Position numbers and translations under genes: made by a program
Assembly (NCBI GenBank): GCA_964598005.1
Contig: CAZRAL010000028.1
Coordinates: forward strand, 1-34,059
DNA length: 34,059 bases
Origin: an uncultured Burkholderiales bacterium
GTDB taxonomy: Bacteria; Pseudomonadota; Gammaproteobacteria; Burkholderiales; Usitatibacteraceae
Reading direction: 5' to 3'
Shown: positions 1,699-34,043 of the stretch, piece by piece
How the letters are laid out: the number at the start of each line of letters is the position of its first letter
How positions within the stretch are numbered: the first letter of the stretch is position 1
Notes under the pieces: model-generated
What the model was told of the DNA's origin: nothing
Databases searched by the model: none
What the model saw: only the letters and a program-made list of their open reading frames with translations

Positions 1699-1700
1699 AT

Positions 1701-1775
1701 TAGTGTATAACTCAACAGGAAGAGTAGGAGACTCTTAATCTCAATGTTGTGGGTTTGAGTCCCATTGTACCAACC
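1701..1775 (+). tRNA. tRNA-like sequence, anticodon loop CTCTTAA (Lys-CTT-like). Likely degenerate or pseudo.
   Basis: D-arm ACTC/GAGT. Anticodon stem GGAGA/TCTCA with a G:A mismatch. T-arm GTGGG TTTGAGT CCCAT (T56). Encoded 3' ...TGTACCA A CCA. Acceptor 5' strand TAGTGTA pairs poorly (1 mismatch, 2 wobbles). Paralog of the next tRNA-like sequence. Confidence 0.3.
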
Positions 1776-1939
1776 ATTATTTGCTATATTCATCAGTATT
1801 CGATCCACGCGAAAGCGCAGATCAAAAAGAATTCGTTGTAGAACGTATTGCAGCGGGTGAGGCTCGTGAGTCCTCCCTGGTGCGCTATCCCTGAAAATCG
1901 GGAGGGCGTATACCGCGATGCGGAAAGCAGCGGATGTTG

Positions 1940-2011
1940 GGTAATTTAGCTCAGTGGTAGAGCACAGACCTAATCCGTCTGAGGTCGTGGGTTCGAGTCC
2001 CATATTTACCA
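1940..2011 (+). tRNA. tRNA-like sequence with non-canonical anticodon loop CTAATCC (nominal anticodon AAT, C at position 37). Likely pseudo-tRNA, body Ile-GAT-like.
   Basis: Canonical D-arm TAGCTCAGTGGTAGAGC. Perfect anticodon stem CAGAC/GTCTG. T-arm GTGGG TTCGAGT CCCAT. Acceptor GGTAATT/ATTTACC with one T:T mismatch. No encoded CCA. Confidence 0.35.
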
Positions 2012-2012
2012 T

Positions 2013-2086
2013 GTTTCCATAGCTCATTTGGGTAGAGCAATCGGTTCCCAATCGATGGGTAGCGGGTTCGACTCCCGTTGGAAAAG
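2013..2086 (+). tRNA. tRNA-Gly (CCC)-like
   Basis: D-arm GCTC ATTTGGGT AGAGC. Anticodon stem ATCGG/TCGAT with loop TTCCCAA. T-arm GCGGG TTCGACT CCCGT. Acceptor GTTTCCA/TGGAAAA with a G1:A72 mismatch. Only 1 nt from the preceding tRNA-like sequence. Confidence 0.4.
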
Positions 2087-2353
2087 CAAGGTCTCTGTAA
2101 AAGACCATTTAACTGTAGTACCCGGGCCGGCTCCGGTGAAATGTGCCGTTGTTGTTTGATGCATTTCACACCGCCCACCTCGCTTGTGCGCTGCTCGCGC
2201 GCCTATGCGAGACAGTTCAAACCGCTTGTTGCGGGCTAAGGTTATTTGCTGTTTGGAATAACTGAAACCTGTCGGCAAGTGGTGCGGCTGCTCTCCCGTA
2301 TGCGCAACACTGCGTCCGCTGGGTGGCCGGGGGGCCGGACCACATTTACAAGA

Positions 2354-2360
2354 AAGGAAG
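2354..2360 (+). promoter_or_regulatory. Shine-Dalgarno AAGGAAG, 7 nt upstream of ATG 2368
   Basis: Read directly: agaaaggaag aattacg atg. Confidence 0.6.
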
Positions 2361-2367
2361 AATTACG

Positions 2368-3510
2368 ATGTTAAAAATGTTTCATATTAAAAAAGACGAA
2401 CGTGGCTTGCTGTTAAAACAAGGCGACTTCGCTGCAATTTTGACTGCAGGGGAATATACTTTTTTTGATCCGCTGGCTCGCTTGAGGCTGGAAAAATTTT
2501 CCCTCAGCAAAACGCAATTTGATCACCCGTTGGCGGACTATCTGTTGAAAGCCGAGCTGGAAGTTGTTCGACGCGAATTCCACGTGATTCAGCTGGGGCC
2601 AACCGAGGTCGGGTTGCGTTACGAGAACGGTGTGCTGGCCGAATTGCTGGCGCCCAATACCCGCCTTCTATACTGGAAGGGTTACATCGATCTCAAGTTC
2701 GAGGTAGTCAACATCGCTGAGGAATTTGCGGTAACAAGCAAACTTGTTCCGCAAATCTTTACCAATGCACGTACCAAGATCAGCGGGATTGAAGGTGTGT
2801 TTACTGTGCAGGTGCCGCAGTACCACGTAGCGGTGCTGTATGTGGATGGCAAGGTGGCGAAATTATTGGAGCCGGGTGTTTCAGCATTCTATAAGTTCAC
2901 CCGCGATTTGCGTGCCGATATCGTCGATCTGCGCTTGCAGGTGCTGGAGGTGGCTGGGCAGGAAATTTTGACCAGAGATAAGGTCTCGTTACGCGTCAAC
3001 TTGACAGCTGGCTACCGGATCAGCGATGTACTGGCGGCTTATGCCAAACAAGCCAAACCGGTCGACTTCCTGTACAAGGAGTTGCAGTTTGGGCTGCGCG
3101 CTGCCGTAGGTACCCGTACGCTCGATGAATTGCTGGAAAACAAGCATGTCATCGATGAGGTGGTGAACGAGCATATCAAGCGCCGGTTAACCGGCAAGGA
3201 TGGAGGCTACGGCCTCGAAGTCGAGTCAGTTGGAGTAAAGGACATCATCCTGCCGGGCGAGATGAAGGCTATTCTGGCTAAAGTAGTAGAGGCCGAAAAG
3301 GTGGCGCAGGCCAACGTGATTCGTCGTCGTGAAGAAACCGCGGCTACCCGCTCTTTGCTCAACACCGCTCGTGTGATGGAAGACAACCCGACCGCGCTGC
3401 GTTTGAAAGAGCTGGAAACGCTGGAAAAGGTCACCGAGAAGATCGACAAGATCTCCGTATTCGGCGGCCTCGACGGAGTGCTGAAGGATCTGGTGAAAAT
3501 CCGTCCGTAG
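2368..3510 (+). CDS. SPFH/band-7 (stomatin/prohibitin/flotillin/HflKC) domain protein, about 380 aa
   Basis: Long intact ORF. Internal ATG with a strong RBS preferred over the track start at 2323. Band-7-type core followed by an Ala/Glu/Lys-rich C-terminal coiled-coil region (AEKVAQANVIRRREETAATRSLLN). Confidence 0.6.
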   Translation: MLKMFHIKKDERGLLLKQGDFAAILTAGEYTFFDPLARLRLEKFSLSKTQFDHPLADYLLKAELEVVRREFHVIQLGPTEVGLRYENGVLAELLAPNTRLLYWKGYIDLKFEVVNIAEEFAVTSKLVPQIFTNARTKISGIEGVFTVQVPQYHVAVLYVDGKVAKLLEPGVSAFYKFTRDLRADIVDLRLQVLEVAGQEILTRDKVSLRVNLTAGYRISDVLAAYAKQAKPVDFLYKELQFGLRAAVGTRTLDELLENKHVIDEVVNEHIKRRLTGKDGGYGLEVESVGVKDIILPGEMKAILAKVVEAEKVAQANVIRRREETAATRSLLNTARVMEDNPTALRLKELETLEKVTEKIDKISVFGGLDGVLKDLVKIRP

Positions 3511-10891: not shown

Positions 10892-12001
10892 TCATTTGTT
10901 CAGAAAAATGTCCACGATTTTTGCAATTCGCGCCGCCGCATGTCCATCCCAAAGTGCTGGAATCCCGCCTGATTTGGCATTGCCTCTAAGCACTTTAATA
11001 GCTGATTCGGTAATGAGGTGGGGATCAGTACCAACGATTATATTGGTGCCTTCTGAAATGGTAATGGGCCGCTCGGTGTTGTCACGTGCGGTCAGGCAGG
11101 GCACGCCGAGTGCCGTAGTTTCCTCCTGAAGGCCGCCGCTGTCTGTCAATACAAATGCCGCATCTTTCCAGAGGTTTAGAAACTCCATATAAGGTAAAGA
11201 TGGCAACAAGTGTATCGATGCAGGTAGCGGAACCTGAAATTCAGCAATACGCGCTCGGGTACGAGGATGAACGGGGAAAATGAGGGGAATCGATTGGCTA
11301 ATGTTACTAAGCGCAGAGAAAATACGCCTAAGTATACTTTGATCATCTACATTCGAAGGGCGGTGTAATGTGACTACTCCGTACCGTCCAAGTTTTGCTT
11401 TGAGAGCAGCATATAAAAACTGTTCCGAATTCATTTTGGAAAGCTGTTTGAGTTGAAAATAAAGGTTATCGATCATCACGTGACCGACAAAATGAATCTT
11501 TGTTTGATCTTTCCCTTCCGCAAGAAGATTTTTTTTGCCTTCCAGTTCAGTTACAAAATAAAGATCAGAAATTGAGTCCGTTATAATGCGGTTGATCTCT
11601 TCTGGCATCGTCATATCGTTGCTTCGTAAGCCCGCTTCTACATGGGCCACAGAGACATTTAATTTTTTGGCGACCAACGAACAGGCAACGGTTGAATTGA
11701 CATCGCCAACAACGATAACCAAAGCAGGATTCTCCTGCACGCATACTTGTTCATAAGTCATCATGATGCGGGCAGTTTGTACGGCGTGAGAGCCGCTGCC
11801 TACATCCAGGTGAGTATCAGGTACGGGAATACCCAGTTCCTCAAAAAAAACATCGCTCATCTCGCGATCATAATGCTGCCCAGTGTGGATAAGCCGACAT
11901 TCGAGCGTGTGATGCTCACGCATCGCCCGCATAATCGGAGCGACCTTCATAAAATTCGGACGCGCACCAGCAATCAAGTGGATGATTTTCTTTGTGGTCA
12001 T
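10892..12001 (-). CDS. wecB: UDP-N-acetylglucosamine 2-epimerase (non-hydrolysing; WecB/FnlC family)
   Basis: IHTGQHYD motif, VVGDVNSTVACSLVAKK, and the DSGG/GT-B epimerase core. Confidence 0.8.
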   Translation of the reverse strand: MTTKKIIHLIAGARPNFMKVAPIMRAMREHHTLECRLIHTGQHYDREMSDVFFEELGIPVPDTHLDVGSGSHAVQTARIMMTYEQVCVQENPALVIVVGDVNSTVACSLVAKKLNVSVAHVEAGLRSNDMTMPEEINRIITDSISDLYFVTELEGKKNLLAEGKDQTKIHFVGHVMIDNLYFQLKQLSKMNSEQFLYAALKAKLGRYGVVTLHRPSNVDDQSILRRIFSALSNISQSIPLIFPVHPRTRARIAEFQVPLPASIHLLPSLPYMEFLNLWKDAAFVLTDSGGLQEETTALGVPCLTARDNTERPITISEGTNIIVGTDPHLITESAIKVLRGNAKSGGIPALWDGHAAARIAKIVDIFLNK

Positions 12002-14968: not shown

Positions 14969-15682
14969 CTACGGTTTGCGTAGTATGCCAACAAGCAATA
15001 TGCGGAACGGTGCCAAAAAATGGAAGAAATTGACAGTACGTTCATAAATTATTCCAATGATATAAGTTAACCACATAAAACGAAGATACTCTGGGCGCCC
15101 TTCAATCAATTTAATTTTTTCAACTAGTAACCCGGCCGTAGTTGCATGACGTTTCACTGTCACCATCGTATTAGCTAAATATTGTGTTGGAAACGTATCT
15201 ATTTCTGCACGGCCACGTTTGCGATTAACCCATTGATGAAAACTGTAGGGTGTTATACGTGCAATTGTGGGCATGTAATGCCACTTGTTTGGAGTTTTAA
15301 ATATGAAGACGCCGCCAGGTTTTAAGACACGCTGAATTTCACAGAATACTGTTACAGGATCCGGGAGATGTTCTACGACATTATCTGCAAATACAACATC
15401 AAAATAAGCACTATCATAGGGGATGCTGTTAGCATTAGCTATACGACCTTCATCAAGCATAGGATTATTCAGTACTCGCGGGTCTAAATCAACCCCACAA
15501 ACACGTTTAACCAACCCCTTGAAATTCATTTGTTCGACAATGCCTGCTCCTGCACCTAAATCTAAAATCACACTATCGTCACATAAGTACTGAAGCAACG
15601 TATCCCTAAACAATTGATCATCCCAGTTTCGATCAAAATGCGGATACCATGCCTTATCAATTCGTGTAATCAAAGTGTTCAT
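14969..15682 (-). CDS. Class I SAM-dependent methyltransferase
   Basis: ILDLGAGAG (motif I), VFADNVVEHL, and LKPGGVFIF (motif III). Confidence 0.65.
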   Translation of the reverse strand: MNTLITRIDKAWYPHFDRNWDDQLFRDTLLQYLCDDSVILDLGAGAGIVEQMNFKGLVKRVCGVDLDPRVLNNPMLDEGRIANANSIPYDSAYFDVVFADNVVEHLPDPVTVFCEIQRVLKPGGVFIFKTPNKWHYMPTIARITPYSFHQWVNRKRGRAEIDTFPTQYLANTMVTVKRHATTAGLLVEKIKLIEGRPEYLRFMWLTYIIGIIYERTVNFFHFLAPFRILLVGILRKP

Positions 15683-17802
15683 TTTAAAGCTTCCTCAAGC
15701 TTTATAGAGACGCGACTGACTTCAATCAATTCACTTGGTTTGATGAGCAGTTCGTTACCTTTACGGATGGCATCCACAAACATCTGTACACAGGCTTGTA
15801 CACCTTTGTCTTGTCGCCAAAGATTCATCTTATTGAATTTTTTCCAGCCCCAGCCTTTTAGTTTTATAAAATTATCAAGCTGTAATACTCGTCCTGCACA
15901 AAAAACTTCCAGTCGTTCCTTGGGGAAACTTTGATGGCCATTAGCTAAATAATGAATGGCTCCCACGCTGCCATTTTCAAATTGCAATATTATTATTACT
16001 TTATCAGCAGTTATTTGCAGAGAAGGGTGACGTCCTAACATAACCGCGGAATAGTGCATAATTGGGGCACCAGCTAAATGACGTAAAAGATCGACAAAGT
16101 GACAAGCCTCCCCGATGATTCGGCCACCGCCAATAGCCTTATCTTGCGTCCAATGGATTGGAGGAATCGCTCCGGCGTTAACGGTGACTATGAAATTCTT
16201 AGGCTCAATTACGGTATCAAGCAACGCTTTCATTTTTATTACTTGGGGGGCAAAGCGGCGGTTAAAACCAACCATTAAATGCTGTTTTGGACATGTCGCC
16301 AGTATCGATTCAATTTTTCCAAGTTCTTGCATATTTAAGCAGAGCGGTTTTTCTACAAACACATGTTTACCCGCGCGCAGAGCTTGCAATACCAAATTGG
16401 CATGACTATCGTGCCTTGTGGCGATTACTACAGTATTTATCGCCTTATTAGTGAGCATCGCATTGAGGTCAGTTGACATTTGTATAAAATCAAACTTATC
16501 CCCATAGTGGAGCCCATTGATTCCCCCGGTTGTTACCACCGTATGCAATGTTGCGCCTGCTATTTTAAATGCCGGCATTAACATACGCCCTGCGTAATTG
16601 CCAGCACCAACAAAACCGGCACATACAGGTTCTGGTGTACCGGATAATGTATTGAGGACTACCGTACGCTGCATTAGCAGGTCAGTAAGTTGCTTTGCTG
16701 TATAAATTATTAGGATACCTAGCGACTGGGTTGGGCTACTTAATAATGAATATGCTTTTTCCGCATCGTCCAAATTGAAACGATGGGAGATTAGCGGTTC
16801 AACATCAATCGCACCAGTTGCCATTAGGTCCAGTACAGCTTCGAAATTACGCTGTTCAGTCCAACGCACAAATCCTATTGGGTAATCATGCCCGCCTTCT
16901 TCATAAGCAGGGTCGTATCGGCCAGGACCATATGAGCAGGAAACTTGAAAACTCAATTCCTTTTCATAAAAATCAGCGCGCGACAACTCAAGGCCCGTAA
17001 CACCAACCAATACAATGCGTCCTCGCTGCCGGCACATTTTGGCCGCCTGGCTTACGGGGTCATTGCTTTTGGTTGAAGCCGTAATAATGACTGCATCTAC
17101 CCCTCGCCCCCGCGAAAATGCGACTGCCATATCCAGGGGATTGGCCCCTTTTGAAACATCAACTATTTCGGCACCAAAACGTTGTGCGAGCGCCAAACGC
17201 GAAGCATCCAAATCAATTCCCAATACCCTGCAACCCTGTGCCTTGAGCATCTGTACGGTCAACAATCCAATTAGCCCCAAGCCTGTGACCACTACACATT
17301 CACCTAATGTGGGATTGACCAAACGAATGCCCTGCAAACCAATAGCGGCTAACACCGTGAAAGCAGCATGTTCGTCGGAAACGACGTCTGGAATACATGC
17401 ACACAGATTCTGAGGTACACAGACTATCTCGGCATGTTTACCGTTAGATACGACTCGATCACCAAGTGTAAAATCACTGACACCGCTGCCAATTTCAGCA
17501 ACAACACCGACATTGCAATAGCCCAATGCGAGTGGTTGGTCGAGTTTGCTCTGCACTGCTTCCAATGTGGTTAACAGCCCATCTGTACGAATCTTGTCGA
17601 GCACTTGGCGTACTTTGTCGGGTTGTTGTCGTGCTTTGTCCAATAAATTGGCTTTGCCAAATTCAACCAGCATTCGTTCAGTCCCTGCAGACACAAGCGT
17701 CCGAGATGTTTGGATTAGGAGTTGGCCAGGCTTTACATTCGGCACCGAAATTTCAGCCACTTCCGTGGTGCCGGTTTTGAGGCTTTGTAATATCTGTTTC
17801 AT
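15679..17802 (-). CDS. Bi-domain oxidoreductase: N-terminal zinc/MDR-type alcohol dehydrogenase fused to C-terminal Gfo/Idh/MocA NAD(P)-oxidoreductase
   Basis: N-terminal half has the GroES-like fold plus VVVTGLGLIGLL Rossmann motif. C-terminal half has GFVGAGNYAGRMLMPAF ... EKP ... GFNRRF of Gfo/Idh/MocA. ATG 17802 (MKQILQS) preferred. The track start at 17826 is a TTG lying inside the IS inverted repeat. Confidence 0.75.
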   Translation of the reverse strand: MKQILQSLKTGTTEVAEISVPNVKPGQLLIQTSRTLVSAGTERMLVEFGKANLLDKARQQPDKVRQVLDKIRTDGLLTTLEAVQSKLDQPLALGYCNVGVVAEIGSGVSDFTLGDRVVSNGKHAEIVCVPQNLCACIPDVVSDEHAAFTVLAAIGLQGIRLVNPTLGECVVVTGLGLIGLLTVQMLKAQGCRVLGIDLDASRLALAQRFGAEIVDVSKGANPLDMAVAFSRGRGVDAVIITASTKSNDPVSQAAKMCRQRGRIVLVGVTGLELSRADFYEKELSFQVSCSYGPGRYDPAYEEGGHDYPIGFVRWTEQRNFEAVLDLMATGAIDVEPLISHRFNLDDAEKAYSLLSSPTQSLGILIIYTAKQLTDLLMQRTVVLNTLSGTPEPVCAGFVGAGNYAGRMLMPAFKIAGATLHTVVTTGGINGLHYGDKFDFIQMSTDLNAMLTNKAINTVVIATRHDSHANLVLQALRAGKHVFVEKPLCLNMQELGKIESILATCPKQHLMVGFNRRFAPQVIKMKALLDTVIEPKNFIVTVNAGAIPPIHWTQDKAIGGGRIIGEACHFVDLLRHLAGAPIMHYSAVMLGRHPSLQITADKVIIILQFENGSVGAIHYLANGHQSFPKERLEVFCAGRVLQLDNFIKLKGWGWKKFNKMNLWRQDKGVQACVQMFVDAIRKGNELLIKPSELIEVSRVSIKLEEALK

Positions 17803-17809
17803 ATTAAAC

Positions 17810-18552
17810 AGGGTCTTAGGAAGCAAACATGTGATTGATACATGCTAACTTCTTGAGATGATTGAGAAAAACAGGTACCTCACACGTTCCAAAATCAGTG
17901 AGGCTAAGTTTCGACAGATTGTGCGCCATTTTTCTCTTGATTTGACCGCCAATGAATGCGCAGCATTGACGGGTATTTCCGTGCGTAGCATCAATTCGAT
18001 TTACCTGCGCATGCGTCAGCGTACGGTGACTTAGTGCACTGAGCATTCGCCTTTTTCTGGCGAGCGTGAAGCCGATGAGTCTTACTTTGGTGCTCGTCGT
18101 GTGCGTGGTAAACGGGGCCGTGGAGCGGCTGGCAAAACGATCGTCTTTGGTCTGCTCAAACGCGGCGATCATGTCTACACAGAGATCGTGCCTAATGCCT
18201 CCAAAGCCACGTTGCAAACCATTATTAGAGGTAAAGTTGACCCTCACATCCATACTGACAGCTGGCGTGGTTATGACGGGTGGGTCGATATTGGCTTTGA
18301 TAAGCATTTTCGGGTCAATCACGGCAACAATGAATTCGTCAAAGGCTCCAATCATGTCAACGGCATTGAGTCTTTCTGGAGTTTTGCCAAGCGCAGATTG
18401 GCCAAATTCAATGGTATTGCCAAACACACTTTTGCTTTGCATTTGAAAGAGTGTGAGTTCCGCTTCAACCATCGTCATGACAACCTCTATCTGGCCCTGC
18501 TAAGGTTATTTAGAAATAACCCTCTATAATCAAGTTTGCTTCCTAAGACCCT
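17810..18552 (+). mobile_element. IS1595-family (IS1016-group) insertion sequence, 743 bp, with perfect 19-bp terminal inverted repeats AGGGTCTTAGGAAGCAAAC
   Basis: 17810-17828 equals the reverse complement of 18534-18552. IRs extend imperfectly to about 27 bp. Flanked by AAAC on both sides (17806-17809 / 18553-18556). Encodes an IS1016-like transposase. Confidence 0.8.
17858..18529 (+). pseudogene. IS1016-like (IS1595 family) transposase interrupted by an in-frame TAG at 18032-18034
   Basis: N part 17858-18031 (MIEKNRYLTRSKISEAKFRQIVRHFSLDLTANECAALTGISVRSINSIYLRMRQRTVT*) and C part (..EHSPFSGEREADESYFGARRVRGKRGRGAAGKTIVFGLLKRG ... WRGYDG ... GIESFWSFAKRRLAKFNGI ... HLKECEFRFNHR) are in one frame (18032-17858 = 174 = 58x3). 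Matches IS1016 transposase from memory. Confidence 0.7.
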
Positions 18553-18559: not shown

Positions 18560-19327
18560 TTAGCTGGGCAGTAAAGCTTCTTTTCCTGCGCGGTTGGGGT
18601 AATTAATCAACACTGCACGATACTTACCCTTAAAAACAAAAAGGCTCCCAGCGGCAGCGCCAATAATACCGTAACGATTGATCAGTTCTTTTAAATCATC
18701 AAATGAACCTGCTCCGCCGAGCACAGTCAGTGGCAGATGAACCGCCTGCCGAACCAGCTCAACCAAGTCCAGGTCATAACCTTTCATCTTGCCATCCCGA
18801 TCCACCGAGTTGACCACTATCTCGCCTGCGCCTAACTCCGCCATTTGACGCGCGAATTCAACAGGATTAAGCCCTGTTCGGCGAGAACCATTGTGCGTTA
18901 CCACTTCGTAGCGACGAAGCAAACTCGTTTTCTTAATATCAATTACTACGACCACGCTCTGACTACCAACCCGCGAGGCAGCATCAGAAATGAGTTTCGG
19001 GTTCTCCACCGCCGCCGAACTGACGGCAACCTTTTCGACGCCAAGACTGATGATCTTCTCTATCTGCGCCACCGTACGTACGCCACCTCCATAACAAAGC
19101 GGCGCCCTGCATTCCGAGGCAAGGTGTGAAATCATCTGGTAGTCTGGTTCGGCACCCTTGACTGTAGCATCAATATCGACCACCACCAGTTCATCAACCT
19201 CTTTCTCATTGTAAATCCGAACCGCATTGATCGGATCCCCCACGTACTTCGGGTTGCCAAAATTAACGGTCTTGACGAGGCCGCTGTTGTGAACTAACAA
19301 ACAGGGTATCAGTCGGGGACGTAGCAT
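18560..19327 (-). CDS. wbuZ: HisF-like cyclase subunit (imidazole-glycerol-phosphate-synthase paralog; WbuZ-type)
   Basis: MLRPRLIPCLLV ... VDELVVVDIDA ... GGGVRT ... VSSAAVENP match the HisF (beta/alpha)8 signature. Start ATG 19327 overlaps the hisH-like stop. Confidence 0.75.
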   Translation of the reverse strand: MLRPRLIPCLLVHNSGLVKTVNFGNPKYVGDPINAVRIYNEKEVDELVVVDIDATVKGAEPDYQMISHLASECRAPLCYGGGVRTVAQIEKIISLGVEKVAVSSAAVENPKLISDAASRVGSQSVVVVIDIKKTSLLRRYEVVTHNGSRRTGLNPVEFARQMAELGAGEIVVNSVDRDGKMKGYDLDLVELVRQAVHLPLTVLGGAGSFDDLKELINRYGIIGAAAGSLFVFKGKYRAVLINYPNRAGKEALLPS

Positions 19328-19941
19328 CAGCCAAGCTCCGCGAAATTCTTCAACAGGCGGACACCCCACTGGTGGCTTTTTTCCGGATGGAATTGCGTTC
19401 CATATACATTTCTGGAGCGTACCGCTGAAGTGAATATCAAGCCATAGTTGGAAGTAGCCAGGATATTTTCTTCGTGGTCCGGTTTCATATAATAGGAATG
19501 CAAAAAATAGTAGCGGGGTGCGTCCAACCCAGAAAAAAGGCTGTCAGTTCTTAAGGGGGTCGCATCGTTCCACCCCATATGCGGAAGGTGGGTCTTGCCC
19601 TCAAGCAAACGGGTATCGAATTTGACGACCGTTGCATCAATCCACCCCAAACCCGGCAGCCTTCCCTCTTCACTAGAGCGAGCCATCATCTGCATACCCA
19701 CGCAAATGCCCAATACCGGTTTCCCCCCCCCAAGGACTTCTTCGTCCAGGGCTTCACGCAAGCCCGATTCCTGGAGACGGGTCATTGCCCAGTCAAATGC
19801 GCCGACGCCAGGAAGAATGATCCGGGAAGCCCTGTGTAAATCATTCTCGGTACGTGCCGCCCATGCCTCAATTCCGAGATGTCGATAAATATTGGCAAAA
19901 GCCTGAATGTTGCCTAGGCCATAATCAACCAGCGCAATCAT
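19327..19941 (-). CDS. wbuY: HisH-like class-I glutamine amidotransferase subunit (WbuY-type)
   Basis: MIALVDYGLGNIQAF ... LPGVGAF ... GICVGMQ (catalytic Cys) ... HLPHMGWN ... SYY. Confidence 0.8.
   Translation of the reverse strand: MIALVDYGLGNIQAFANIYRHLGIEAWAARTENDLHRASRIILPGVGAFDWAMTRLQESGLREALDEEVLGGGKPVLGICVGMQMMARSSEEGRLPGLGWIDATVVKFDTRLLEGKTHLPHMGWNDATPLRTDSLFSGLDAPRYYFLHSYYMKPDHEENILATSNYGLIFTSAVRSRNVYGTQFHPEKSHQWGVRLLKNFAELG
19723..19731. repeat. Homopolymeric C9 (G9 on the coding strand) inside the hisH-like gene, currently in frame (encodes GGG in EEVLGGGKPVL)
   Basis: Read directly: ggtttcccccccccaagg. Longest G/C homopolymer seen in the window. Confidence 0.9.
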
Positions 19942-21083
19942 CGCTTGCCGCCAATTTCCAGGCCCATAGCCCGCATTACCCGTGCGCCGTAATCATAAAG
20001 CTGCCGCTGATTTTTGTAATCCTTGTAGGTTTTGTGAGGTAGCTTCATGTAGCTGTTAAGCTCATCCACAGTGATGCCCAGCTTGTTCGCCACAAACTCG
20101 ATTTCCTGAGCAATCGTGGTTTCATCGTAACTAGGCTTCTTGAGGAGCTCGATGGCTTCTTCGCGGGCCATCTGCCCGGTAACAATCAGGCTGGAATACT
20201 GAATGCGGCGAACATCGTATCCAAACCGCTTAGGCAGCCAGTAACTCTCGTAGAATTTCGTAAAACGGGACTCGAAGTGCTTTTGTGAATAAGGCTGCCA
20301 CCCAAAACGATCAATCAAAAGCTGCTTGGCCTCTTCCTTGATGTAGGGCACCATATTCAGCGGGCGGACAACCTTGATACCTTTGAAATATGGCAGCCAC
20401 ACCTTATGCCACAGAATTGATGTCACTGGGAAGGTCTTGAGTGGCCGAGCGCCGAATTGGCGGTGAATATCTCGAAGTTGGCGCGAATCAGATTGGTAAT
20501 ACATCCACTCGATAGGATTGCGAATGCATTCAGTCGACAGATTCGCGCCGGTGAGGATGTATTTGACCTTATGCTGCGTCGCAAATTTGTACATTGTGGC
20601 GAAGAATGCATGATCCTGTGGCGTGTCAATGTGCGGAACGCCGGACTTAAAAAAAGCCAGCTGCAAATCACGCATCTCTTGCCAATCAATTACCTCGGTG
20701 AACAGATCGAGCCCTAGTCCATCGATCAGACGCTCGATGTTATTAACCGCAATTTGCGAGTTCCAGCCTGCATCGACATGGAACACCAGCGGACGCAACC
20801 CCATCTTTTCCTTTGCGATGTAAGTCAGATATGAGCTATCAATTCCGCCGCTCATGCCGATGATGCAGTCAAAATCCTTTCCTCTCCCATCATGTTTGAT
20901 AGCCTCAACTAAGCTGGCAAGCTTTGCTCCACCGCCAACTCCGGTATCCCAGCTAGGCAGAGTGACATTTTTGAAAGTGTTGCAGTGATCACAAACTCCC
21001 TGATCATCAAAAATAATCATTGAGTCCGTCGTGTCCATGACACACGAAGTGCAAATTTGGTAGTTGCGGTCAGTCATATGCAT
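19938..21083 (-). CDS. wbuX: N-acetyl sugar amidotransferase (PP-loop ATP pyrophosphatase; WbuX/PseA-like LPS biosynthesis protein)
   Basis: N-terminal Cys cluster (CTSC ... CDHC) and the GMSGGIDSS PP-loop. Co-located with hisH/hisF-like genes as in the wbuXYZ acetamidino-sugar modules. Confidence 0.75.
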   Translation of the reverse strand: MHMTDRNYQICTSCVMDTTDSMIIFDDQGVCDHCNTFKNVTLPSWDTGVGGGAKLASLVEAIKHDGRGKDFDCIIGMSGGIDSSYLTYIAKEKMGLRPLVFHVDAGWNSQIAVNNIERLIDGLGLDLFTEVIDWQEMRDLQLAFFKSGVPHIDTPQDHAFFATMYKFATQHKVKYILTGANLSTECIRNPIEWMYYQSDSRQLRDIHRQFGARPLKTFPVTSILWHKVWLPYFKGIKVVRPLNMVPYIKEEAKQLLIDRFGWQPYSQKHFESRFTKFYESYWLPKRFGYDVRRIQYSSLIVTGQMAREEAIELLKKPSYDETTIAQEIEFVANKLGITVDELNSYMKLPHKTYKDYKNQRQLYDYGARVMRAMGLEIGGKR

Positions 21084-23299: not shown

Positions 23300-25162
23300 T
23301 TAAAGTCTAGCGCCATAAATTTTCCGCCACAACTCAAACTGCACCAGAGAAAACAAACGCTCTCCGTTGCTTCGCCCTTGATCCTGACCTTTCAGCAATG
23401 AATGTACCGTAGAGGTATCGAACAGGCAGTCTCGGCTCGACAAGGTATCCCAGAACAGTTCCCGGAACGGTCCGGCCTTGAGCCACTCAGCCAATGGAAT
23501 TGAGAAACCCTGCTTTCGCTGTGAATCAAACTCGGGCGGTAGCACCCGCGCAGCAAGCCGTTTAAGTAGTATTTTCCTTTTGCTGACTGTTGCTTTCAGA
23601 TGGGAAGGCACTTGCCCAAAGGCGAACTCGATGATCCGAAGGTCGAGCAACGGTGCCCGCACCTCCAAAGAATTAAGCATGCTGGCCCGATCTACCTTCA
23701 CCAGAATGTCTTCCGCTAAGTAGTCTTGGAAATCCATCCGCGTCGACCGCTGTAGCAAATCTGGTTGGCTTGGAACGCGACCTGCGCAGATGGCCTCGGC
23801 GACAATTGGGTGTCCCGGATGGCCTCGCATCAATCGACTGCGTGTAGTTGCATCGAAATAGTTGGCAATCAAGGGCAGACTGTGGCCTAAGTCCATGTCC
23901 AACCCTTGCAGGTAGTTTCTTCCCTTTAGACCGACTGGCAGCCATTGCTCGGCCACTGCCGAAACACTGTGTCGTAACCAGCTTGGAATATGCGCCAACT
24001 GCTGCTGCATCCACAGTAATCGGCTGTGATGTTTATAGCCACCAAACAGTTCATCGCCGCCATCACCGCCCAAGGCAACGCTGCAGTGCTGGCGTACCAG
24101 ACTACTGACTAGCCAAGTAGGAAACATGGAGGAATCCACCATGGGTTCATCGAACTGGCGCGCAAGAGTAGGCAACAGGTCGACGGTAGTGGGTTCAGCC
24201 ATCATTTCTATATGCTCGGTTCCAAAAAAGCGAGCAATCAGCCGTGCGTGTGGGGTTTCGTCCAGATTGCCGTGTCCAGGAAAACCGATGCTGAAAGTGC
24301 GTACTTGACGTGATCTGCGTACAGCCATAGCTGTGATCAGACTAGAATCGACCCCACCGCTTAGGAGAACACCTACTGGCACATCCGCTACCAACTGCCG
24401 ACCCACTGCATCTTCCAACAGGGACTCCAGTTCATCGAGCAGGGAGGCCTCATTGATTGCTCCCGCAACGGATTGCAACTCCGGCAACTGCCAATAGCGC
24501 CAGACCTTGGTCACACCCTGATGCAGATCAAAAGTCATGGCATGCGCCGGTGGCAGCTTGTGATAACCCAGCAGGATGCACCGATCTCCAGGGACAAAGC
24601 CCATGGTCAAGTAGCAGTCCATGGCCTCCGGGTCGATGCGCCTAGGCAAGCCTGGGTGTGCTAGCAGTGCCTTTAACTCCGAAGCATAGAAAAGCCTTCC
24701 GCGATCAAGTCGATAAAACAGCGGCTTCTCTCCCGTCCGATCACGGGCAAGAAAGAGTCGCTGGTGGCGAGTATCGTAAATGGCAAAGGCAAACATTCCA
24801 TTAAGATGCGAAAGGCAATCTGTACCCCACTCGGCGTAGGCAGCTAAAAGCACTTCGGTATCGCTGTGGGAACGAAATCCATGTCCGCAAAGTTCGAGTT
24901 CATTACGTAACTCAGCGAAGTTGTATATCTCACCATTAAAGACGATGACAATATTCCGAGAATAAAAATGCATAGGCTGATGCCCAAGTGGAGATAAATC
25001 CAAAATGGACAATCTACGATGAGCCATGCCCACACGGGAATCCTCGGACCACCACTCCCCGGCATCATCTGGGCCACGATGTTTCATGGTGTCGCGACCG
25101 ATGCGCAACCAAGAACGATTAGTTTGCCGGTCTATGGAAGCGACACCAACTATACCGCACAT
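23300..25162 (-). CDS. Asparagine synthetase B-like glutamine-dependent amidotransferase (WbpS-type), paralog 1
   Basis: MCGIVG N-terminal nucleophile Cys2. SGGVDSS PP-loop. About 620 aa. Start placed at MCGIVG (25162) rather than the track's 25195. Confidence 0.8.
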   Translation of the reverse strand: MCGIVGVASIDRQTNRSWLRIGRDTMKHRGPDDAGEWWSEDSRVGMAHRRLSILDLSPLGHQPMHFYSRNIVIVFNGEIYNFAELRNELELCGHGFRSHSDTEVLLAAYAEWGTDCLSHLNGMFAFAIYDTRHQRLFLARDRTGEKPLFYRLDRGRLFYASELKALLAHPGLPRRIDPEAMDCYLTMGFVPGDRCILLGYHKLPPAHAMTFDLHQGVTKVWRYWQLPELQSVAGAINEASLLDELESLLEDAVGRQLVADVPVGVLLSGGVDSSLITAMAVRRSRQVRTFSIGFPGHGNLDETPHARLIARFFGTEHIEMMAEPTTVDLLPTLARQFDEPMVDSSMFPTWLVSSLVRQHCSVALGGDGGDELFGGYKHHSRLLWMQQQLAHIPSWLRHSVSAVAEQWLPVGLKGRNYLQGLDMDLGHSLPLIANYFDATTRSRLMRGHPGHPIVAEAICAGRVPSQPDLLQRSTRMDFQDYLAEDILVKVDRASMLNSLEVRAPLLDLRIIEFAFGQVPSHLKATVSKRKILLKRLAARVLPPEFDSQRKQGFSIPLAEWLKAGPFRELFWDTLSSRDCLFDTSTVHSLLKGQDQGRSNGERLFSLVQFELWRKIYGARL

Positions 25163-25194
25163 ATTTTTTACAATTCTTAATTGGTCGGCTATCA

Positions 25195-26223
25195 CTACTC
25201 TTCAATCGCTTTACGAAAGCCTGCAATCATGCGATCGAGAGTTCGATTCCGCGAATATTGAATATATGCATTATGGCCTAATACCTGTACTAGACTTGGA
25301 TTGTTACAAACCCACTCAAGTGCAGTAGTTAGATCATTTTCACTTTCAAGAATAAGTGCATTGTGATTGTGATCCAAATTCATAAACTCAGGACCGTGGC
25401 GTCCTTCGCGCAAGGTTACAACAGGTACACCGTATGCAAAGCTGTGTAACACTCCGAGCCCAACTGGACCTGGGGATATATAAGCATATGCACGGGAGAA
25501 AAGGGTTGCTAACATGGCATGATCCTGAACTGAACCATGAAAAGTAATCTTCTGCGCAACGCCAAGTTCACTTGCAAGCTGTCGAAGCTCACCCTCAAGC
25601 ACACCTCCCCCTACAATATCAAGCACAATATGATCAGCGATACGTCCCTGTAATTCTAAGAATGTGCGAATGATTAAATCAATACGTTTTCTGGACTGCA
25701 ACCTCCCGACAAATAGCAAGCTGCATTTATCTGCATTACTCGTGTCGGAATGATTGGGAACGTGGATCGTATTTGGCGCTACGACGACCTTTGATAGATC
25801 AACCCCACGCTCGGACATGCGAGCAATCTCTTCTTCCCCATACAACAAAATTCGATCTGCCTTCTTCATTAAGAAATCACGAGTTCTATTAGCAAGCCCG
25901 TTAGCACTATAGCGATGACCCCACAAAATCCACTTAGCGTGGCGTTGTCCAACAAAGGGCAGAATATATGCAGGCCACCTCAGATCAAACATTGAGATTA
26001 CAGCGTCAAAATGCTGTCGTGCTTTATAGATCGAAGCAATATTTTGCAAATGAAACGGTCCAACTTTCACTTGTGGAATAATAATTTCAGCATAGTGGCT
26101 GAATATCGCCTCCCCCTCCTTGTTGGCATGCATTACTGTAACTAGATAATGCTTCGTCAATTCATTTATTACTGGGCGACGGTACTCTGTTAAGGCGTCT
26201 TGCAGGATCAAGATCGACTTCAT
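25195..26223 (-). CDS. Glycosyltransferase family 4, about 342 aa
   Basis: GT4 C-terminal domain (LLFVGRLQSRKRIDLI ... GVPVVTLREG). Start at MKSILIL (26223) with AAGGG 7 nt upstream preferred. Track ORF extends to 26331, overlapping the upstream gene. Confidence 0.65.
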   Translation of the reverse strand: MKSILILQDALTEYRRPVINELTKHYLVTVMHANKEGEAIFSHYAEIIIPQVKVGPFHLQNIASIYKARQHFDAVISMFDLRWPAYILPFVGQRHAKWILWGHRYSANGLANRTRDFLMKKADRILLYGEEEIARMSERGVDLSKVVVAPNTIHVPNHSDTSNADKCSLLFVGRLQSRKRIDLIIRTFLELQGRIADHIVLDIVGGGVLEGELRQLASELGVAQKITFHGSVQDHAMLATLFSRAYAYISPGPVGLGVLHSFAYGVPVVTLREGRHGPEFMNLDHNHNALILESENDLTTALEWVCNNPSLVQVLGHNAYIQYSRNRTLDRMIAGFRKAIEE

Positions 26224-26305: not shown

Positions 26306-28228
26306 CTATGCTGTGTCACCTGAAGGTACATCTAGGAACCGCCTAAACCACAATTCCGTACTCAACAAGCGAAACAGCAGTGTGCTATGGTCTCGCTTGC
26401 CCTGACGGTGCGTATCAATGAGTCTTCGCAGGCCAGACTTATCAAATAGTCCACGCTCAAGACTGCGTGTGCTCAGAAGAATATCGACTGCACTTTTGGC
26501 TCCTGTAAACTTCTTGCGGAATTGTGATGTAATCGGTGAGTTGAAACCGAATTTGGTACGGTTATAAAGAATCCAATCGGGCACAAGTCCACACATTGCT
26601 TGTCTGTGGATATATTTGCCTACTCCAAGCTTGATTTTGAAATCACTAGGCAGACTCCATACAAATTCGACCAGCCGGTGATCCAAGAATGGCATACGCG
26701 ACTCAATGCTGTTCGCCATTGAAATGGCATCACCATAATGCAAAAGATTCACCAGACCACCAGAATGTTGACGCCGTAGCGTTTCCGTAACCCACCCTTT
26801 ATCTTCCTCATCTGGCAGTGGCGGATAGTCGCGCATTCGGTCATAGTCACGTAGTGCAGGGCCAAAGGCCTCTGACACTCCTGTCAATTGCTGGTATAGC
26901 ATGGATAACCAAGGAAGGCGATTACTCGCCCCACGTAGCGCCATAAATACACTGTAACGAAGCTTATAGGTTTTGCTATATTCCTCAACTGATGCAAAAG
27001 CTTCTCGGTATCTCCCAGCAGCAATCAGGTCACCGAAACTTTGCCAGATTATGTTGGCGACATAGCCGCCAAGAAGTTCGTCGGCACCTTGCCCTTCAAG
27101 CAACACTGTCACGTGCTTTCGTGCTTTTCTGAGCAGCTGCATCAATGGAAAGACAGCAGGCGAACTGTTCCCACTCTCCAGATGCCAGACGATATGTGAG
27201 AGCTGATTGACAAACTCTGAATAGTCAGTATCGACGACATGTGAGTGGAGCTTTAGTTCATGCGCTACGCGACAAACAGAAGTCGACTCATCAATCGTGT
27301 TGCCGGCCTCAACATATATCGAACGGTTCTGAATGAGTCCCTCTTCCGATGAGAAACGTGATGTGAAGCAATGATGCGGTGCAGGATCAATGTGTTGCAT
27401 CGCATAAACGATCGAGGAAGAATCAAGGCCAGAAGAAAGCGTAACACCTAGCGGTACATCGCTGCGCATCCGAATGTATACAGCATCATGGAACAGTCTC
27501 GCATATTCTTGACGCGCATCTTCGAATGATAGATTTTTAATTATCTGCTGTGGATAATGCCAATAACGTGAAATGTAGATTTTGCCACTACGAATCGAAA
27601 GATTATGCCCAGGCTGAAGACGTTTGACCTTCTTAAACCAAGTTTCGGGGTGTTGCGCGCCAACTGAAGTCCTGCAAAAATTAGAAATTATGTTGTAGTC
27701 AGGTTCTGCGAGTTGGGGAGCATAGGCCAAGATTGCCTTGATTTCTGATGCGAAATAGAACTTCCCGTCGAGCAAAGCATAGTTAAAAGGCTTCTCGCCA
27801 TAACGATCACGGGAGCAAAATAGCGTTCGCTCCAGTCGGTCGTAAATCGCGAAGCCCCACATGCCATTGAAGCGCTGCACACATGCTTCTCCCCAGCGTA
27901 TGTAGGCCTGGAGCAGAACTTCTGCATCACCTAAGGTGTGAAAGGCCACACCAGCGGCAATTAGTTCAGAGCGAAGCTCTAAGTAATTAAATATTTCACC
28001 GTTGAAGACAAGCCAGTAGCGATTATGCGCGATGATCGGCTGGTTGCTGGCATCACTAAGGTCTATAATAGATAATCGAGTGTGGCCGAATAACGCATCG
28101 TTTCCAACTTGCTTCCAGGCCTGTGCATCGGGGCCGCGATGCTTAAGTGCTTCCAGCGCTCGTTTGACTCGACGTTCGTCAAATGATCCAACTCCATCTA
28201 TATTTATAATTCCAAAAATTCCGCACAT
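26306..28228 (-). CDS. Asparagine synthetase B-like glutamine-dependent amidotransferase (WbpS-type), paralog 2, 640 aa
   Basis: MCGIFGI N-terminus. SSGLDSS PP-loop. AsnB C-terminal domain. Confidence 0.85.
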   Translation of the reverse strand: MCGIFGIINIDGVGSFDERRVKRALEALKHRGPDAQAWKQVGNDALFGHTRLSIIDLSDASNQPIIAHNRYWLVFNGEIFNYLELRSELIAAGVAFHTLGDAEVLLQAYIRWGEACVQRFNGMWGFAIYDRLERTLFCSRDRYGEKPFNYALLDGKFYFASEIKAILAYAPQLAEPDYNIISNFCRTSVGAQHPETWFKKVKRLQPGHNLSIRSGKIYISRYWHYPQQIIKNLSFEDARQEYARLFHDAVYIRMRSDVPLGVTLSSGLDSSSIVYAMQHIDPAPHHCFTSRFSSEEGLIQNRSIYVEAGNTIDESTSVCRVAHELKLHSHVVDTDYSEFVNQLSHIVWHLESGNSSPAVFPLMQLLRKARKHVTVLLEGQGADELLGGYVANIIWQSFGDLIAAGRYREAFASVEEYSKTYKLRYSVFMALRGASNRLPWLSMLYQQLTGVSEAFGPALRDYDRMRDYPPLPDEEDKGWVTETLRRQHSGGLVNLLHYGDAISMANSIESRMPFLDHRLVEFVWSLPSDFKIKLGVGKYIHRQAMCGLVPDWILYNRTKFGFNSPITSQFRKKFTGAKSAVDILLSTRSLERGLFDKSGLRRLIDTHRQGKRDHSTLLFRLLSTELWFRRFLDVPSGDTA

Positions 28229-30422: not shown

Positions 30423-31883
30423 TCATGATGTTGGTACATTCTCAACGCGCATATTCAACATACGTGCGCGGATCGCCTGATAACTGCGCCCATAGAGATA
30501 GACCAAAAGAAAATGCAAGGGCCATCCGCCGGACAATAAAACCCGAAAAAAGGATGTATCTGCAAGCATCCAGATGCAGCCAAGTGAAGATAAACACAGT
30601 AGGCGAAGATTAGTTTTTCTCGACCAGCTATTGAATATTGCCAAAGCGATTCCAAGAATCACCCCGATTAGTACGACACCGAAATAACCGGCCGCTGCTA
30701 TTCCATCAGTCGACCAAAATCCACCGGACATATCATATGTATAAAAACCTGCCTGAAAGTGTCCAACAATCTGTCCAATACTAAATTTTTCGTATGGGTA
30801 ATCTATAAACCAGCTGACAGGCCCAAGGTGGGAATAAAATGTGAATGGGTTTTGGTTGTTAACAAAAAAGTCATAGTAATTACCAAGGGTCATCCCGTTT
30901 ATTGAGAAGGCTCTCTTGACTACCTGAGAGAGAACAAGACCGACCAATTCCTCTACTTCTTGACCATAAATTTCTATAAGAAGCAACACGGCTATTATTA
31001 TTATGGCAAAAAGTTTCCCGATATCTTCGGCTAAGATCTTTTCCTTCTTTAGAACAAAATAATGCACTGCATACATGAGCGGAATCAGAAAAACAATAAA
31101 CTTCGATCCGGTAATAAAGAAGCCCATAAGAAACCCCAAAAATCCAAAGTAAAGAATGTGTCTTTGTTTATACATCATGCCGATCGCAACCATTAATGGC
31201 GATATCACCCGAATCAACCATTGGAGTATATAAGCTGGAAGCGTCCTATTTGGGGAGTATTCCGATACGATATCTCTTTGGTCGTAGACATTTGTGATTT
31301 CCACAATCGTAATCACACTCGCGTAAAATATAAAAAGAAAGGCTGATATAAAAAGAAAAATCAAAATTAAATTGATCTCAAATTTTGAGTTCAAGTATCT
31401 TATGCCGGAAGTGAGTCTGTTGTTCAGTGCTAAGATTAGTTCATGACGATATGTCACATGCTTCCATTTTGCGTTCGCTAGACTTTCTGGAATGAATGCA
31501 ATGAGGTAAAGCGAGACGGTCAGGCAGGCTATCAGAAAATACCCGGCATCTGAGGGGAAACCCTGCATTGCGACGATTATTACCGAAGGAACAAAGACGA
31601 AAAAGAAAAGAAACCAAACCACAAATCGCGAATAAAATACTATCGCTCGTGGGTAGGTCGCCGAAAACATGATGCAGCATAGGCTTGCCAAAATCAGGGG
31701 CCCTAAGCTTCGATCGCTATTGAATTCTGGAAACCCTTGATAGCCCCATACCGGAGTCAAGTAATAGTAGTAATTGTAAATATTAACCAGAATATAAATC
31801 AGCGTGATTGCAACCAGCAGCAATCTGCCTTTTTGAATTACGAGGTTCCCCCGGTTTTTCGTCTGCAAAAAAGCGAGATTCAT
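30423..31883 (-). CDS. wzy: Wzy-like O-antigen/EPS polymerase (polytopic membrane protein). The 5' 14 codons are supplied by the adjacent IS3 inverted repeat.
   Basis: Very AT-rich and hydrophobic. At least 10 TM helices with a large loop. Poorly conserved, as expected for Wzy. The ORF start (MNLAFLQTKNRGNL) lies inside IS sequence 31842-31883. Confidence 0.4.
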   Translation of the reverse strand: MNLAFLQTKNRGNLVIQKGRLLLVAITLIYILVNIYNYYYYLTPVWGYQGFPEFNSDRSLGPLILASLCCIMFSATYPRAIVFYSRFVVWFLFFFVFVPSVIIVAMQGFPSDAGYFLIACLTVSLYLIAFIPESLANAKWKHVTYRHELILALNNRLTSGIRYLNSKFEINLILIFLFISAFLFIFYASVITIVEITNVYDQRDIVSEYSPNRTLPAYILQWLIRVISPLMVAIGMMYKQRHILYFGFLGFLMGFFITGSKFIVFLIPLMYAVHYFVLKKEKILAEDIGKLFAIIIIAVLLLIEIYGQEVEELVGLVLSQVVKRAFSINGMTLGNYYDFFVNNQNPFTFYSHLGPVSWFIDYPYEKFSIGQIVGHFQAGFYTYDMSGGFWSTDGIAAAGYFGVVLIGVILGIALAIFNSWSRKTNLRLLCLSSLGCIWMLADTSFFRVLLSGGWPLHFLLVYLYGRSYQAIRARMLNMRVENVPTS

Positions 31884-32779
31884 GCGACCTGTTTTTCCTG
31901 AGACTGCACTGGCGACTTGTAACCGAGGCTCGAATGCCGCTTCTTGCGGTTGTAAAAAACCTCAATATACTCGAAGCTGGCGGCCTTTATGTCGGCATGA
32001 GTGGCATAGCGAATTCCATGTATCCACTCGTTCTTCAAGCTATTAAACCAGCTCTCCGTCGGCGCATTATCCCAACAGTTGCCTTTCCGACTCATCGAGC
32101 AAGTCATGCCATAGGCCTTGAGCTTATCCTGAAAGGCATGAATGGCGTACTGGCTACCCCGGTCAGAATGGTGCATCAGCCCCGCTATCGGCCGTTTCCT
32201 GAACCAGGCTATAGTTAGCGTATCGATCACGAGGTCCGCTGTCATGTGCGGTTTCAGCGACCAGCCGACTATTTCGCAGTTGAACAGGTCAAGCACGATA
32301 GCCAGATACAGCCAGCCTTCATCGGTCCACAGGTAGGTTATGTCCGATTCCCAGACCTGATTCGGCACCGACGGCGTGAAGTTCCTGTCCAGCAGGTTCT
32401 CCGCCACCGGCAGGCCATATTTCGAGTCCGTCGTCATTTGGTAGCGCCGCTTGTGGCAGGCACGAATGCTGTTGTCGCGCATCAATCGCTCAACCCGTTC
32501 CTTTGCCGGTCGGATATACCCGGCCACGCAGCTCGCACACCATACGCGGGCTGTCGTAAGCGCCTTTGACTTCGCTATGAATGGATTCGATCAGCGCCAG
32601 CATTTGCTGGTCAGAGAGTCGCTTGCGATTAGGTGTGCCACCACGCATCCATGTACGATAACCACTGATGCTGACATTGAGCACGTCACACATTTCAGCT
32701 AGCGAGTATGATTGGCTTTGCTCGGCAATCTAGGCGTACCTCACAGTACACCTCTTGCAAAGTACGCCGTCGCTTTTTT
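31880..32779 (-). pseudogene. IS3-family transposase OrfB, frame-disrupted beyond the programmed -1 site
   Basis: Three frames are needed: -1 frame from the slippery site stops after 11 codons (ATAYFARGVL*); N-terminal OrfB segment IAEQSQSYSLAEMCDVLNVSISGY ... ELRGR lies in the +1 frame (32729-32490); DDE core (RVERLMR ... VWESDITY ... HSDRGSQY ... NAPTESWF) lies in the -1 frame (32527-31880). Confidence 0.65.
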
Positions 32780-33361: not shown

Positions 33362-33431
33362 CATCAAAATGTGAAGTTGAAGTCACCCCCATTTCACGGA
33401 CACCTTATTGTTCTTTCAGAAGGAGTCCGAA

Positions 33432-34043
33432 ATGTCCAAACCGTACATCCGCAAACCGCCCTATCCGGCGCAATTTCGAGAACAGATGATTGAGCTGGTT
33501 CGCGCGGGGTGCAAGCCCGGCGAATTGACCAAGGAGTATGGCTGCCATGTCACCAGTATCCTGAACTGGATAGGCCAGGCCGATGGAGCGACCGGTGTCG
33601 TGCCAACCCAGGCCAGTGCGCTCAGTGCCAGTGAACGCCAGGAGCTCATCGAGCTGCGTCCCCAGTTGCGCCAAGTCCAGATGGAACAAGATATCCTTGC
33701 AAAGGCTACGGCCTGGTTTGCCAACAACGGCGACAACACGTTCACCCCCGTCTACGCGGAGCTGCAAGACGCAGGCATGGTGGCCAGCCGCAAGCGCATT
33801 GCCCGTTTGATGCGACACGAGCAGATGCGTGGAGTCAGTCGCAGGCGCAGCTTCTGCGTGACTGAGCGAGATGTCCGGCATCGCCCGGCACCGGACTTGG
33901 TGAATCGTGAGTTTGTGGCCACCGACATCAACCAGTTGTGGGTGGCCGACATGACCTACATCCCGACCTGGACGGGATTGCTGTACCCGGCCATGGTTAT
34001 TGATCCGAGATTTTCCATTAGGCTGGTCCCATTGCAGAGCTAA
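33432..34043 (+). CDS. IS3-family transposase with OrfA and OrfB fused in one frame (internal deletion derivative). C-terminus anomalous or partial.
   Basis: AGGAG RBS 7 nt before ATG 33432. OrfA HTH (MSKPYIRKPPYPAQFREQMIELVRAGCKPGELTKEYG), ATAWFA junction motif, then directly KRIARLMR ... DINQLWVADMTYIP (first catalytic Asp). The OrfB N-terminal segment of about 50 aa expected between them is absent. Ends ...VIDPRFSIRLVPLQS* at 34043, deviating from the conserved VIDLFSRxVVGW. Confidence 0.55.
   Translation: MSKPYIRKPPYPAQFREQMIELVRAGCKPGELTKEYGCHVTSILNWIGQADGATGVVPTQASALSASERQELIELRPQLRQVQMEQDILAKATAWFANNGDNTFTPVYAELQDAGMVASRKRIARLMRHEQMRGVSRRRSFCVTERDVRHRPAPDLVNREFVATDINQLWVADMTYIPTWTGLLYPAMVIDPRFSIRLVPLQS

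Follow-up and report, generated by a model that had tools for sequence, protein, structure and literature searches.

Homopolymeric phase variation of LOS, LPS and capsule is classically known from Neisseria (lgtA, lgtC, lgtD and lgtG), Helicobacter (futA and futB), Haemophilus and Bordetella. These tracts are poly-G/C runs within the reading frame of a surface-glycan gene, so placed that the gain or loss of one nucleotide truncates the product. Their length differs between the strains in which they recur, their genomes are enriched in them, and rates of switching have been measured. The nearest functional parallel to the tract described below is found in the poly-G genes of Campylobacter jejuni flagellar glycosylation (Cj1295; pseD of strain 12661), where an intragenic tract of about nine G lies in a gene for an acetamidino-type glycan (PMC3068675, PMC7099621). 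C. jejuni has many tracts per genome, with documented read-level variation, and the affected genes are transferase or maf genes. The pseD tract is confined to strain 12661, and its number of G residues varied among reads, yet no phenotypic phase variation was found (PMC7099621). Single homopolymeric runs located in ordinary genes, some of them for polysaccharides or biofilms, have been followed in mutation-accumulation work on mismatch-repair-proficient Vibrio, Escherichia coli and Pseudomonas, where longer runs had higher rates of single-base indels and mismatch repair kept these rates low (PMC5854121).

Acetamidino modules have been described as WbuX/WbuY/WbuZ (E. coli O145 type), as hisH2-hisF2-wbpG in the wbp cluster of Pseudomonas aeruginosa O5 and as AglX/AglY/AglZ in Methanococcus maripaludis. 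To our knowledge, a homopolymeric tract has not been reported in any of these three modules. The locus described here shares the three protein families with them as well as the grouping of overlapping genes in a polysaccharide cluster, and the proposed roles are alike, namely a glutaminase, a HisF-like partner and a PP-loop amidotransferase (NCBIfam names; PMC2952790). It differs in a run of nine G inside the glutaminase gene. Like the classical LOS, LPS and capsule tracts, this run is a poly-G/C tract in a surface-glycan reading frame that a change of one nucleotide truncates, but neither recurrence across strains nor enrichment was found for it. Like the C. jejuni 12661 tract it is strain-specific; in contrast to C. 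jejuni, there is one tract in 34 kb, it is seen only as a consensus G9, and the affected gene encodes a glutaminase subunit of an uncultured environmental host. As in the mutation-accumulation studies it is a single run, although indel rates were measured in those bacteria, whereas the present tract is known from sequence alone (PMC5854121).

The window, i.e. the whole stretch of DNA that was analysed (34,059 nucleotides), carries a long, co-oriented cluster that probably directs the synthesis of an O-antigen or EPS type polysaccharide in an uncultured organism, probably a betaproteobacterium. It encodes a WecA-like initiating transferase, WecB- and WecC-like enzymes, GT4 glycosyltransferases, a Wzx-like flippase, a Wzy-like polymerase, two Asn-synthase-type amidotransferases and several methyltransferases. 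The wbuX, hisH and wbuZ genes are contiguous and co-oriented within it, in an order identical in relatives. The nearest module lies in a Sulfuritalea MAG, which, together with the slipin and IS3 matches given below, is the basis for placing the host among the betaproteobacteria. The wbuX stop and hisH start codons overlap as ATGA, and the hisH stop and hisF start codons as TGATG. A preliminary description of this DNA had assigned the HisH-like gene to a wbuXYZ-type module, which was borne out by all three proteins scoring above curated cut-offs (Table 1). The HisF-like protein also passed the WbuZ profile TIGR03572 (301 bits against a cut-off of 300), and its gene was likewise called as 255 aa in Logan contig L001. 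In an alignment of 50 homologues, Cys80 (GICVGMQ), His185 and Glu187 (FHPEKS) and PGVG (residues 44-47) were invariant, and the solved HisH structures 1jvn, 4gud and 1gpw were matched by the window protein. Judged by the invariant catalytic residues and the alignment to solved HisH chains, the acetamidino module wbuX-hisH-wbuZ is intact, with all features of membership that can be read from sequence present. The window also encodes a 715-aa fusion of zinc-ADH-like and Gfo/Idh/MocA-like oxidoreductase domains and, as two separate genes, the Asn-synthase-type glutamine amidotransferases; together these suggest that, besides the wbuXYZ step, the polysaccharide receives several amide or amidino decorations.

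Table 1. Features of the window and their positions
Feature	Position	Strand	Remarks
G9 homopolymer (C9 on the + strand)	19723..19731	-	hisH codons 71-73; same G9 in Logan contig L001
Premature stops after slippage	19673..19690	-	G8/G11 frame at about 19688-19686; G10/G7 frame at about 19675-19673
Cys80 codon (TGC), catalytic nucleophile	19702..19704	-	18 nt downstream of the tract
hisH-like / wbuY glutaminase gene	19327..19941	-	204 aa, intact; TIGR01855, 218 bits against a cut-off of 105
wbuX-type N-acetyl sugar amidotransferase gene (PP-loop)	19938..21083	-	381 aa; TIGR03573, 311 bits against a cut-off of 203
wbuZ / AglZ / HisF2-type gene	18560..19327	-	255 aa from the ATG at 19327; NF038364, 382 against 310
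hisF Shine-Dalgarno sequence (GGAG)	19336..19339		eight nucleotides upstream of the ATG
Oxidoreductase fusion gene	15679..17826	-	715 aa
Asn-synthase-type amidotransferase gene, first	23300..25195	-	
Asn-synthase-type amidotransferase gene, second	26306..28228	-	
WecB-like UDP-GlcNAc 2-epimerase gene	10892..12001	-	
A8 run (coding strand) in the WecB-like gene	11529..11536		codon 156, GKKN
T8 run (coding strand) in the WecB-like gene	11843..11850		codon 51, VFFE
G6 run	2329..2334		
G6 run	16245..16250		
tRNA array	1626..2087	+	four tRNAs
tRNA His-GTG	1625..1697		ARAGORN
tRNA, fourth of the array	1701..1773		Rfam match, missed by ARAGORN
tRNA Ile-AAT	1940..2011		ARAGORN; odd assignment
tRNA Gly-CCC	2013..2087		ARAGORN
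Slipin/band-7 protein gene	2323..3510	+	
IS1595-family transposase fragment	18101..18529	+	profile positions 85-215 of 215
IS3-family transposase piece	31880..32527	-	rve domain
IS3-family transposase piece	33408..34043	+	rve domain

Reading of the sequence placed the tract exactly at the positions listed in Table 1. The + strand around it reads ...CCGGTTT CCCCCCCCC AAGGAC..., and hisH codons 67-80 on the - strand are GAA GAA GTC CTT GGG GGG GGG AAA CCG GTA TTG GGC ATT TGC, in which codons 70-75 (CTT GGG GGG GGG AAA CCG) translate as L G G G K P. Lying in frame, the run encodes Gly71-Gly72-Gly73, with Cys80 of the GICVGMQ block six codons downstream. The preliminary description of the tract was accurate throughout, including its ranking as the longest G/C homopolymer of the window; the second-ranked G/C runs are 6 nt long, among them the G6 runs of Table 1, and the A/T maximum is 8 nt. 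Two runs of that maximal length, an A8 and a T8, lie in frame in the WecB-like UDP-GlcNAc 2-epimerase gene and are usable as internal slippage controls. Besides G9, simple repeats of the contingency type were not found within the 34-kb window of polysaccharide genes.

The window is an entire metagenome-type contig, and the long-read-style assemblies L167 and L168 contain evident miscalls at homologous A-run sites. Both points were considered in favor of a sequencing or assembly artefact, in which two-colour Illumina poly-G or a homopolymer-length error would mask a site that is in reality GAKK-like or of another length. Such an artefact is nevertheless very improbable. The run is internal, both of its flanks match family coding sequence and the frame of the 204-aa protein is kept exactly. 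The same G9 is reproduced in the separately assembled contig L001 (run SRR12762283), which is 100% identical over 3658 nt (window 18447-22104). Dark-cycle poly-G artefacts are much longer and are located at read or contig ends. A poly-G artefact was rejected because the run lies in the interior, preserves the frame and recurs in a second assembly.

The consequences of slippage were followed by editing the tract in silico. Tracts of G8 and G11 yield products of 84 and 85 aa that end in ...GGGNRYWAFAWVCR, while G10 and G7 yield products of 89 and 88 aa that end in ...ETGIGHLRGYADDGSL. All products of the +1 and -1 frames are devoid of Cys80, His185 and Glu187, and G6 and G12 keep the frame. The truncation of HisH that had been proposed to follow the gain or loss of one G is therefore correct, with products of 89 aa and 84 aa, respectively, from which the catalytic triad is gone. 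As the rate of indels grows with run length, G9 would certainly be a slippage hot spot relative to ordinary sequence. A true contingency locus would be one in which selection keeps G9 as a slipped-strand ON/OFF switch, the glutaminase is reversibly lost, WbuZ is lowered via lost coupling and the acetamidino decoration becomes mixed, for example in the escape from phages or grazers. The length of G9 is within the range of known switches, and the location of the tract (35% into the ORF, with both alternative frames ending within 11-16 codons and thus ahead of the catalytic residues) is also in line with this interpretation, as is the precedent of C. jejuni 12661 pseD with its strain-specific G9 and read-level length variation (PMC7099621). 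On the whole of the evidence given below, selection for such a switch is considered unlikely.

The preliminary description had extended the effect of a truncation to HisF by polarity and coupling, and this part of the claim was only partly sustained. The TGATG overlap and an early stop about 350 nt upstream of hisF are in its favor and count towards a contingency locus, since hisF is coupled through this overlap. However, hisF keeps its own Shine-Dalgarno sequence, and polarity is not assured for this reason. Coupling via TGATG would be lost on early termination, and reduced HisF is plausible but not assured. Experimental work on M. maripaludis bears on the expected phenotype. Deletion of the WbuX-like gene MMP1081 removed the acetamidino group, and the flagellin was shifted on deletion of this gene and of the HisF-like gene MMP1083 but not on deletion of the HisH-like gene MMP1082 (PMC2952790). 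The null effect for MMP1082 fits a replacement of the glutaminase by free ammonia. The aglY phenotype of M. maripaludis is said to appear only under ammonia limitation. As the HisH-like deletion was without visible glycan shift, the OFF state of hisH may be phenotypically silent, with no change of the surface, which speaks against a selected switch. The loss of acetamidino modification that had been claimed for OFF variants is uncertain by this analogy. The precedent of the C. jejuni pseD G9, itself without phenotypic phase variation, points in the same direction (PMC7099621).

The tract was compared with the homologous site of relatives. Among the 120 closest homologues (77-100% amino acid identity, all of about 204 aa), GGGK is found in the window protein only. 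The consensus at the site is VLGAKKPVLGIC, all 119 other homologues (77-90% amino acid identity) carry GAKK or a variant of it, and Lys73 is conserved in at least 90% of close homologues. At the DNA level, about 130 genome and metagenome loci were readable at the site and contained G5 at most, often with an A-run of 5 to 8. L162, the closest DNA relative (84% nucleotide identity), reads GGG GCA AAA AAA, and other near relatives read GGA GCA AAG AAA or GGG GCA AAA AAG, the general form being GGN GCN AAR AAR. Orthologues that encode the three glycines with interrupted codons had been named in the preliminary description as evidence that would speak against a switch; the observed difference is stronger, as 119 of 119 are without Gly-Gly-Gly. 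The tract is thus missing from every orthologue examined, which counts against a contingency locus. The tract differs from the nearest relative by five contiguous changes to G. These were considered as a sign of directional tract growth, and this argument was rejected as circular because the site had been picked for being a G run.

Gly is common at position 73 in more distant homologues, and ESGKP of yeast His7 aligns to GGGKP. In an AlphaFold model (mean pLDDT of 87.6, about 95 locally) residues 62-71 form a helix, 72-75 a loop and 76-79 a strand running into the Cys80 elbow. From the residues of relatives and the modelled loop, the tract occupies a permissive helix cap and turn and is derived, lineage-specific and unconserved. 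Homopolymers of another base were observed at the same place (window 19720-19734) in three relatives, L167 (about 1700-1720), L168 (about 1710-1725) and L169 (about 620-640), which contain poly-A (A7/A9/A10) encoding Lys-Lys-Lys and in which the hisH-like gene is frameshifted exactly at the poly-A. L167 and L168 are long-read-style assemblies with many split genes, so that their poly-A frameshifts are probably errors; the A10 sequence, L169, comes from a short megahit contig. The site itself is a homopolymer that recurs in the family.

The number of G/C runs of at least nine nucleotides that is expected in the 34-kb window is 0.14 under an iid or order-1 model and 0.05-0.11 by extrapolation from orders 2-4, compared to the one observed. 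Resampling of synonymous codons with the proteins fixed gave an expectation of 0.08 per window. GGG accounts for 19% of the Gly codons in the window, and three in succession would be found in about 0.007 of tripeptides (0.19 cubed); all six other Gly-Gly-Gly tripeptides of the window use mixed codons. In the related loci (168 contigs, 874 kb), 4 G/C runs of at least nine and 11 of at least eight nucleotides were detected, where an order-3 model predicts 2.9 and 10.8 and an iid model 18.7 and 60.7, respectively. The empirical rate of runs of at least nine is thus about 0.16 per 34 kb. With 4 runs observed against 2.9 (order 3) and 18.7 (iid) expected, long G/C runs in related clusters are at or below the rate predicted by composition, and they are not over-represented. 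G9 is only mildly unusual by comparison with chance. Both this agreement with compositional expectation and the finding that G9 is the sole tract in 34 kb of surface-polysaccharide genes argue against a contingency locus.

Unrelated MAGs also contain in-frame runs of G8 to G10 or C10 in neighbouring genes of the module, located on Gly or Pro motifs. The motifs concerned are CYGGGV and LGGAG of WbuZ and PPP or GGG of the homologue of the 715-aa oxidoreductase. Examples are a G10 (L014, 4852-4861) and a G8 (L109, 2355-2362) on the WbuZ CYGGGV motif and a C10 on PPP (L032, 7482-7491), and further runs in relatives are located in L038 (5220-5227), L143 (2519-2526) and L067 (7402-7409).

Length variants were sought in consensus sequences from very few samples, L001 being the only other assembly of the strain. 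A flank-anchored pattern, GAAGAAGTCCTT-N{5,14}-AAACCGGTATTGGGC, returned 0 matches in JGI metagenome contigs. Exact look-ups of the WbuX and HisF proteins, made to find a broken hisH beside them, returned the same contigs only. A collection of 5.8 billion proteins was searched with a chimeric query composed of the N-terminal 73 aa and both frameshift tails, and a same-strain OFF product of 84 or 89 aa was not among the results of this search, which listed short proteins only, without P0001 itself, and is of uncertain sensitivity. The search did turn up frameshifted homologues at the homologous poly-A site, and two of the three that were fetched came from long-read-style assemblies. These results (G9 in both assemblies, 0 pattern matches and neither an OFF product nor an alternative neighbour context) are further points against a contingency locus. 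Taken with the absence of the tract from orthologues, its composition-level frequency and its solitary occurrence, they leave the proposed phase-variation switch without support, while the anatomy and mechanics of the tract stand as they had been described.

We consider it likely, if well short of certain, that G9 is an incidental, lineage-specific homopolymer that is prone to slip and is located in a permissive loop of a functional hisH gene. Gly71-Gly73 would cap the C-terminal end of a helix and make the turn into the nucleophile strand of HisH/WbuY. This turn would be permissive to sequence in the family, with a Lys-Lys A-run in most relatives. In the present lineage Ala72 and Lys73 would have changed to Gly, the three codons all becoming GGG by happenstance. 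A slip of one G would then lead to the 84- or 89-aa product without the catalytic residues and a second slip would restore the gene. With a slippage hot spot and a reversible truncation, OFF cells would arise at a raised but probably low rate, and the sequence most likely produces them incidentally rather than as the outcome of a selected contingency switch. We infer that the tract is neutral. Some observations count against an incidental origin. The threefold GGG is improbable under local codon usage, given that the six other tripeptides are mixed, and the modification of a surface glycan is typical of the gene class in which contingency tracts are found. The run was made by non-synonymous changes and locally improbable codons, which favors a contingency locus. 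Its construction cost a Lys73 that at least 90% of close homologues retain, and this could be a hint that the tract itself was selected. The IS fragments strewn through the cluster, a further sign of its diversification, have also been counted on the side of a switch.

A more far-reaching proposal is that the acetamidino glutaminase of a free-living, uncultured betaproteobacterium is controlled by a poly-G contingency tract, so that the decoration would be both phase-variable and dependent on nitrogen status, as free ammonia substitutes for the glutaminase. This would amount to bet-hedging against phages or grazers outside of the classical host-adapted pathogens, and the frameshifted A7-A10 of relatives would represent the same device in another base. 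We regard this combination as quite improbable. RNA polymerase slippage can occur on long homopolymers, and the coding strand has two more GGG triplets in the 35 nt downstream of the tract. A regulatory element acting at the level of RNA or DNA could be envisaged that tunes hisH-hisF expression by transcriptional slippage, programmed ribosomal frameshifting or a G-quadruplex. The alternative frames end within a few codons and do not offer an alternative product, the loops of a quadruplex would need about 9-13 nt, and the site is unconserved in orthologues, which together make such an element exceedingly unlikely. A search for Rfam families at the tract did not yield a match. G-quadruplex formation, transcriptional slippage and ribosomal frameshifting were thus ruled against by the lack of an alternative product, of conservation and of an Rfam match.

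If the tract does switch, homopolymer phase variation of surface glycans would be extended to environmental non-pathogens. The glutaminase of an acetamidino module would then be a new class of switched gene, none having previously been known to switch, and the tract could serve as a simple metagenome marker of phage-driven surface heterogeneity. As it stands, the locus is a cautionary example: a lone in-frame G9 that is close to compositional expectation and absent in relatives should not receive a phase-variable annotation without read-level evidence.

Several other features were noted in the window. An IS1595-family transposase fragment, truncated at its N-terminus, separates wbuZ from the downstream gene for the 715-aa oxidoreductase; these two genes are adjacent in L003 and L004, and contig L001 breaks inside the fragment, at position 18447. 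Two pieces of IS3-family transposases with rve domains are found at the far end of the cluster, and their best DNA matches (about 70%) are to IS3 copies in Cupriavidus, Burkholderia and Ralstonia replicons. Together, these pieces and the IS1595 remnant show IS traffic through the polysaccharide locus.

A homologue of the slipin/band-7 protein with 94% identity is encoded on a 9.7-kb Logan contig (P0244), and further homologues with 74-82% identity are named 'Betaproteobacteria bacterium'. A sister strain is therefore present in public data. As identity to the nearest HisH homologue reaches only about 90%, this strain probably has a different polysaccharide cluster. A tight array of four tRNAs is located beside the polysaccharide island. 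Three of them were called by ARAGORN, including the odd Ile-AAT, and the fourth was recovered by its Rfam match (Table 1).
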